Below are positions 15,415 to 15,945 of a DNA stretch of 15,945 nt, in pieces. The first letter of the stretch is position 1. The number at the start of each line of letters is the position of its first letter. The notes beneath the pieces were generated by a model. It had not been told where the DNA came from. It was given only the letters and a program-made list of their open reading frames with translations, and ran no database searches. The translations under genes were made by a program, and so were the position numbers. Source of the stretch: a virus (Duplodnaviria > Heunggongvirae > Uroviricota > Caudoviricetes); the IMG/VR virus record IMGVR_UViG_2698536395_000013. One strand, given 5' to 3'.

Positions 15415-15757
15415 GGCCTGTCAGTTTCTTAAGATATCCAGACCAACCGCCACCAACTGGATACGAACAGGCCGCCTACAGGCAACACGTAAAGATCCAA
15501 CCAAGCCAAAATCTCCTTACCTCACAACACGGCAAGCCTGCATTGCGGCGCTTCAGTCTCCGCTGCATACTGTCCAGGTGAGCGCGGGTGATGGCATAAC
15601 AGAGGAAAGAAAATGTCACTCTTCCGCAGAAATGAAATATGGTATGCCTCGTATTCGCTCCCGGGCGGGAAACGAATTAAGGAATCTCTTGGCACAAAGG
15701 ACAAGCGGCAAGCTCAGGAGTTGCACGACAAGCGAAAAGCAGAACTCTGGCGAGTAG
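15386..15757 (+). CDS. xis: excisionase-like HTH protein (AlpA/Xis family); 3' extent uncertain
   Basis: Translation [38 protein letters not shown] is a typical Xis/AlpA HTH. GAGGT SD. The ORF runs 145 nt into the int start, so the true C-terminus may be shorter. Confidence 0.55.
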
Positions 15758-15786
15758 AAAAGCTAGGGGATTTACCTGATGTCTGA
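15613..15786 (+). pseudogene. intD: tyrosine integrase N-terminal fragment (DLP12 IntD-like), truncated after 57 codons by an IS insertion
   Basis: Translation [57 protein letters not shown] then a TGA that coincides with the first bases of an IS3-family terminus (TGAGGTGTACTGGCAATAGCGG). The catalytic domain is absent from the window. Confidence 0.75.
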
Positions 15787-15945
15787 GGTGTACTGGCAAT
15801 AGCGGAAACTACCATTTGTTCTTTTTTTAAGCAGCCATCTGATGATATTTTTCCCTGAAGGCTGCCGGGGAGATATTCCCCAGACGAGAGTGACGACGCT
15901 GACGATTGTAGAAAATCTCAATGTATTCCCGTATTACTGAGATGG
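15784..15945 (-). mobile_element. IS3-family insertion sequence, one end; element continues past window end
   Basis: Terminus begins TGA.., and TGGCAATAGCGGA resembles the IS3 end CAGCAATAGTGGA as I recall it. About 43 bp inward is the stop of a minus-strand transposase ORF. Confidence 0.7.
15827..15945 (-). CDS. IS3-family transposase (OrfB, DDE integrase-like), C-terminal 38 codons only
   Basis: Minus-strand translation ...ISVIREYIEIFYNRQRRHSRLGNISPAAFREKYHQMAA carries the YNRxRxHSxLGxxSPxxF C-terminal motif of IS3-family transposases. Confidence 0.7.
   Translation of the reverse strand, partial: ISVIREYIEIFYNRQRRHSRLGNISPAAFREKYHQMAA

Follow-up and report, generated by a model that had tools for sequence, protein, structure and literature searches.

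Probable truncation of the integrase gene of an argU-type lambdoid prophage of Escherichia coli by IS600

Introduction

Tyrosine recombinases depend on their catalytic domain for excision. Elements of the IS3 family, such as IS600, have imperfect terminal inverted repeats of the form 5'-TG...CA-3', duplicate 3 bp of their target and carry overlapping reading frames, orfA (HTH) and orfB (DDE, rve), which are fused when ribosomes undergo a programmed -1 shift on an A-rich slippery sequence. In E. coli K-12, the prophage DLP12 excises in fewer than 1 per 100,000 cells, while excision is undetectable for Qin, whose intQ is inactive, and for CP4-44, which has no integrase (PMC3105296).

Insertions of IS600 can be reversed. 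In O121:H19, precise excision of IS600 by the IS-excision enhancer IEE gave back lacZ function; the enhancer, which O26:H11 and other serotypes carry on SpLE1-like elements, also deletes DNA that flanks an IS in STEC. O121:H19 represents a STEC background with amplification of IS3-family elements, and reversion of its lacZ was shown experimentally, under lactose selection. A 3-nt target sequence for IS600 has been described in the same work (PMC9397093).

Here we describe the int end of a 15,945-nt stretch of viral DNA (IMG/VR record IMGVR_UViG_2698536395_000013), referred to throughout as the window. Judged by its closest relatives, the host element is a lambdoid prophage of the E. coli O26:H11 type, of the kind found at argU. 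It shares with DLP12, with the argU lambdoid prophages and with phages Turner, 2G7b and ev243 the xis-like/DUF4222/TraR context upstream of int. The intD of DLP12 (99.8% identical to the reference allele) and of these phages continues past codon 57, whereas the gene in the window is cut there. The explanation that we favour, with a probability of about 85%, is that IS600 transposed into intD of an argU-type O26:H11 lambdoid prophage, truncating int after codon 57. Element, gene and this type of insertion have all been described before, and what is new is confined to the exact site. The coordinates of the features discussed are collected in Table 1.

Table 1. Features of the window and of related loci. 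Positions are those of the window unless a related locus is named.
Feature	Position	Strand	Remarks
OmpC-like porin gene, annotated ompC	1016-2098	+	Between Q antiterminator and lysis genes
cro-like gene	9714-9944	-	Divergent from S24 repressor gene
Private T to C	9991		Intergenic (9945-10048), between cro-like and S24 repressor genes; all near-identical references differ
S24 repressor gene	10049-10738	+	Divergent from cro-like gene
Private G to A, Bet D213N	13310	+	In bet (12674-13459); one of two differences from RM8426
xis-like ORF, 123 aa, HTH_17	15386-15757	+	Pfam HTH_17, E=1.2e-8; ends 26 nt before IS
int ORF	15613-15786	+	ATG, 57 sense codons, then TGA
intD 5' fragment, codons 1-57	15613-15783	+	100% identical to first 171 nt of intact intD
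GTC, predicted 3-bp target site	15781-15783		Inferred from GCC and AGG duplications and the 3-nt target in PMC9397093
IS600 right end (IS3 family)	15784-15945	-	Runs to window end; 161/162 against complete 1264-bp copies in L001, L002
IRR of IS600, TGAGGTGTACTGGCAATAGCGGAAACTAC	15784-15812		Imperfect; 20/29 positions match IRL of full copy
Private C to A, IRR position 24	15807		Within CGGACACT block common to both inverted repeats
End of orfB, last 38 codons and TAA stop (15827-15829)	15827-15943	-	Antisense to int
IS600 loci in related strains	L001 6703-7966; L002 6500-7764; L015 7730-10053
Lesions in near-identical prophages	L016 (RM8426) 25814-29840, 38233-38976; L019 (7_12_30A) 10098-14124, 22517-23260

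The junction between int and IS600

The fragment of int in the window is a perfect match to the beginning of the intact gene in O26 strains, in E2865 and in phage Turner, and its product corresponds to residues 1-57 of the 387 aa of intact IntD. On direct alignment, the match to uninterrupted intD ends at 15783, placing the junction at 15783/15784, after which the intact gene reads ACTTTTGAAG and the window TGAGGTGTACTGGC; aligned, intact int runs ...GATGTC-ACTTTTGAAGAGGCC and the window ...GATGTC-TGAGGTGTACTGGCAATAGCGG. When positions 15300-15945 were compared by Megablast with 5,426 complete genomes of E. coli, 100% matches numbered in the thousands; each was limited to query positions 1-484 (up to 15783) and overlay a gene annotated as intD or integrase.

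The alignment across the junction, together with the match of the remaining nucleotides to IS600 at 161 of 162 positions, confirms the proposal of the initial annotation that an IS3-family element truncates int after 57 codons. A match of this quality starting exactly at the terminal base of an element cannot be put down to chance, and the earlier IS3-type assignment can be refined on this basis, the element being IS600 specifically. The matching IS in RefSeq carries the label 'IS3-like element IS600 family transposase'. The int stop codon had been attributed to the terminal bases of the element, and indeed IS600 begins, at its right end, with the TGA at 15784-15786. The transposase C-terminus had been placed on the minus strand, 43 bp inside; this proved to be exact, the stop codon at 15827-15829 lying 43 nt from the IS tip.

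A scan of 15300-15945 for promoters and terminators found zero promoter-like or terminator-like sites, so that an outward-reading promoter in the IS is unsupported.

The junction in the window occurs in 0 of the 5,426 complete E. coli genomes, and an exact scan for its 40 nt found none in collections of viral, genome and metagenome contigs. A junction unique to a single sequence, in a window which ends inside a multicopy repeat as is typical of short-read contig ends, might point to an assembly artefact in which the contig end was misjoined to a collapsed IS600 repeat and int is in truth intact. One would not, however, expect a chimeric join to coincide with the very first base of the terminal repeat, and finished genomes contain real IS600 insertions at distances of 15 bp and 218 bp; we find such an artefact scarcely credible.

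An exact look-up of the 57-aa product retrieved 22 contigs, which were considered as further copies of the IS allele and rejected: they carry the intact int sequence, cut off by the contig end at nt 170-173 of the gene. Their ends read ...GATGT, ...GATGTC, ...GATGTCA or ...GATGTCAC (contigs L004-L013 are among the 22). A mosaic boundary in int at nt 171 was likewise rejected, as the int of phage Turner is identical to intD at 1163 of 1164 positions along its full length; it is also contradicted by the contig ends, which occupy all the positions that would leave 57 codons. The exact look-up of a truncated protein can thus retrieve unrelated partial gene calls at contig ends, a pitfall of the method.

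The IS600 right end

Reference copies of IS600 were taken from the finished genomes of 2010C_3902 and 7_12_30A. The complete element is 1264 bp in length with termini TGAGG...CCTCA. Its orfA (65-367) encodes 100 aa with an HTH_Tnp_1 domain, an A7G slippery site is located at 316, and orfB, which ends at 1221, specifies HTH_21 and rve/rve_3/rve_2 domains. The anatomy of the IS3 family, with two ORFs, HTH and rve domains and a slippery site, is therefore seen in the reference copy; the window shows only the last 38 codons of orfB.

Just 162 of the 1264 bp of this IS600 copy lie within the window, all at the right end. The tip reads TGAGGTG from 15784, with the terminal 5'-TG present, and the minus-strand translation of 15827-15943 is ISVIREYIEIFYNRQRRHSRLGNISPAAFREKYHQMAA followed by the stop, identical to the OrfB C-terminus of a full IS600 copy. 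The window thus has in common with the IS600 of E. coli and Shigella genomes the terminal TGAGG, the OrfB C-terminus and the 43-nt distance from stop to tip. At IRR position 24 (15807) it has A where the known element has C, a private substitution. This change is the sole difference from the reference over the 162 nt; among 6,123 places in the 5,426 complete E. coli genomes, there were 0 perfect matches to these 162 nt, the best being 99.4%, and the A at 15807 was seen in none of the IS600 copies there. It could be a real mutation that weakens the end or a sequencing error at the contig end. If real, we speculate that it could weaken transposase recognition of that end of the IS.

What the integrase loses

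In intact IntD, the Phage_integrase catalytic domain spans residues 184-355 (Pfam, E=5.5e-47), so the open reading frame, ending at residue 57, yields a product without it, as the initial annotation had stated. An alignment of IntD with the HP1 integrase takes in the HDLRH and RYAH motifs, and from the alignment positions R205, H314, R317 and Y349 are presumed to be the active-site residues. By this comparison, the open reading frame in the window is a fragment of an integrase gene, lacking the core-binding as well as the catalytic domain.

What is left is presumed to be the small N-terminal, arm-type DNA-binding domain. A single-sequence AF2 model of the 57-aa product (pLDDT 80.8) has strands at residues 2-6, 9-16 and 20-25 and a helix at residues 31-51, and we take three strands and a helix to be the topology of the arm-binding domain in lambda-type integrases. 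The match to DUF6538, at residues 3-45, is weak and below the Pfam cut-off, and a Foldseek search of the PDB with the model gave no match with E<0.4.

The xis-like reading frame beside int is intact, the two sharing 145 nt. Its homologue in phage SfI, annotated as an excisionase, is 81% identical and has the same overlap with int, and the identical sequence occurs in isolated phages. The label given to this reading frame by PGAP in RefSeq genomes is that of a 66-nt pseudogene fragment. This looks like an annotation artefact, given its occurrence in isolated phages and the excisionase label of the SfI homologue. More widely, positions 15300-15783 are found at 100% in the isolated temperate phages Turner, 2G7b, ev243, PhiR26_1, PhiR30_1 and others, and since isolated temperate phages carry it, the xis-int module in its intact form is functional in nature.

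Relatives of the prophage

Over positions 1-15783, only 2 bases separate the window from the argU prophage in the O26 strain RM8426, which has an intact int, and it is similarly close to other strains of the O26:H11 type with intact int. So small a divergence from strains with intact int marks the IS insertion as recent and strain-specific. In every related complete genome examined, argU adjoins the integrase gene at the end of the prophage.

Both differences are private to the window. The first, at 9991, adjoins the palindrome ATGGTTGT-N9-ACAACCAT (9983-10007) between the divergent cro-like and repressor genes. In the reference sequence the palindrome has arms of 9+9, and T9991 pairs with A9999; with the loss of this pairing, a putative operator in the repressor/cro control region would be shortened. 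The second is the D213N substitution in Bet. The OmpC-like porin gene of the window encodes what is presumably an Lc/NmpC-type phage porin.

Other insertions of IS600 and the far side of the element

Two related genomes carry IS600 in the same gene. In 7_12_30A (NZ_CP074845) the element lies at int nt 186, flanked by a 3-bp duplication of GCC, and in 2010C_3902 (NZ_CP074885) at nt 389, with a 3-bp duplication of AGG. Both insertions are simple, have the orientation seen in the window and are followed by the remaining int and argU. As in the window, the TGA of the IS in 7_12_30A is in frame with int. The insertion points (nt 186 and nt 389, against nt 171 in the window) differ, which indicates three independent events. 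The transposase is antisense to int in all three int insertions, the window included, a number (n=3) too small for significance. Elsewhere in prophages of this kind, 08_3323 has two adjacent (tandem) copies of IS600 between its DUF1382 and DUF1317 genes, and 08_4358 has the element at another place in the early region.

The records of 7_12_30A and 2010C_3902 include both IS ends and the duplications, whereas the window has one IS end. Insertion in the window would have taken place between int nt 171 and 172, with the transposase genes antisense to int, and the in-frame 5'-TGA of the IS tip ends translation directly after codon 57. By analogy with the alleles of 7_12_30A and 2010C_3902, which are simple and have 3-bp duplications, we infer a simple insertion here, in which a complete IS600 would be followed by a duplication of GTC, int codons 58-387 and argU. 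The far side is accordingly predicted to read ...AAACTCAGGCTACCTCA-GTC-ACTTTTGAAGAGGCCTGCC, and then to continue with int nt 172-1164 and argU.

As the window takes in just 162 nt of the IS, this far side is unconstrained, and an IS600-mediated rearrangement might have deleted the 3' portion of int or moved it elsewhere, perhaps along with attL/argU, leaving unrelated DNA beyond the IS in contrast to the ...GGCTACCTCA-GTC-ACTTTTGAAGAGGCC of a simple insertion. It could have arisen by recombination between two IS600 copies, of which related genomes have about 10-20 (places per record), or by an IS-adjacent or IEE-associated deletion, IEE being known to delete IS-flanking regions in STEC (PMC9397093). 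Yet both of the other int::IS600 alleles are simple, each having a 3-bp duplication and an unbroken remainder of int, and the break in the window falls exactly at the IS tip without loss on the visible side. A rearrangement is thus unlikely.

The junction in the window and that in 7_12_30A share the IS end and its orientation, and differ by just 15 bp of int. The allele might therefore derive from a 7_12_30A-type insertion at nt 186 through a 15-bp deletion beside the IS right end, IS-adjacent deletions being known in IEE-carrying STEC (PMC9397093); such an origin predicts GCC-TGCCTAAG at the far IS end. Against this, the window is no closer to 7_12_30A than to the other references: its two single-nucleotide differences separate it from all of them alike, a comparison that is uninformative in that both differences are private to the window. 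The IS end in the window also differs at position 24, and given several other IS600 sites in the prophage an independent insertion is the simpler explanation. We regard descent from the nt-186 allele as very improbable, and an independent, simple insertion of IS600 at nt 171 as the better account.

Excision and its possible restoration

From what is known of tyrosine recombinases, and from the K-12 data on DLP12, Qin and CP4-44, the prophage in the window probably cannot excise by itself, and would need Int acting in trans, or loss of the IS, to do so. The initial annotation had come to a similar view. Like Qin and CP4-44, the prophage has no working integrase, and their undetectable excision is the phenotype to be expected here. 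Those two elements are old, heavily decayed remnants, whereas the lesion in the window is recent.

The picture, in the initial annotation, of a prophage that is otherwise intact is doubtful. Of the lysis genes, the window takes in the holin and just 212 nt of the endolysin, so that only part of the lysis module which the initial annotation took to be intact is in view. In the near-identical prophages of both RM8426 and 7_12_30A, at places beyond the stretch covered by the window, an IS66-family (ISCro1-like) element splits the S49 head protease gene, the gpK-like C40 peptidase tail gene has an internal stop, and an IS3-family element lies between iss and the small terminase gene. As these head, tail and iss-side lesions are common to strains with intact int, they are lineage-wide and older than the IS600 event, and the prophage was probably already defective before int was interrupted.

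The lesion in int may itself be reversible through IEE. As in int::IS600, the transposase is antisense to the target gene in the lacZ::IS600 allele of STEC O121:H19 (PMC9397093). It is tempting to extend this to the idea that the insertion is no dead end, either because IEE acts in rare cells as a switch that restores int, or because the 57-aa product is a decoy against excision or integration; we consider this highly unlikely. As a decoy, the 57-aa domain, if expressed, might possibly occupy arm-type sites of attL/attR, or those of incoming phages with the same Int. Alternatively, IS600 might be frozen in place by the private change at 15807 in its IRR.

Significance

The allele adds one more case to the erosion of prophages by IS3-family elements in STEC/EPEC genomes of the O26 type, and comes with a warning that a contig break hides whether the end of the prophage is still intact. 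The intD::IS600 junction at nt 171 can be used as a lineage marker, and is of little importance beyond strain typing. For the strain itself, loss of int is predicted to fix the already defective argU prophage further in the chromosome, and with it a cargo that comprises the Lc/OmpC-like porin, Iss/Bor and Lom.
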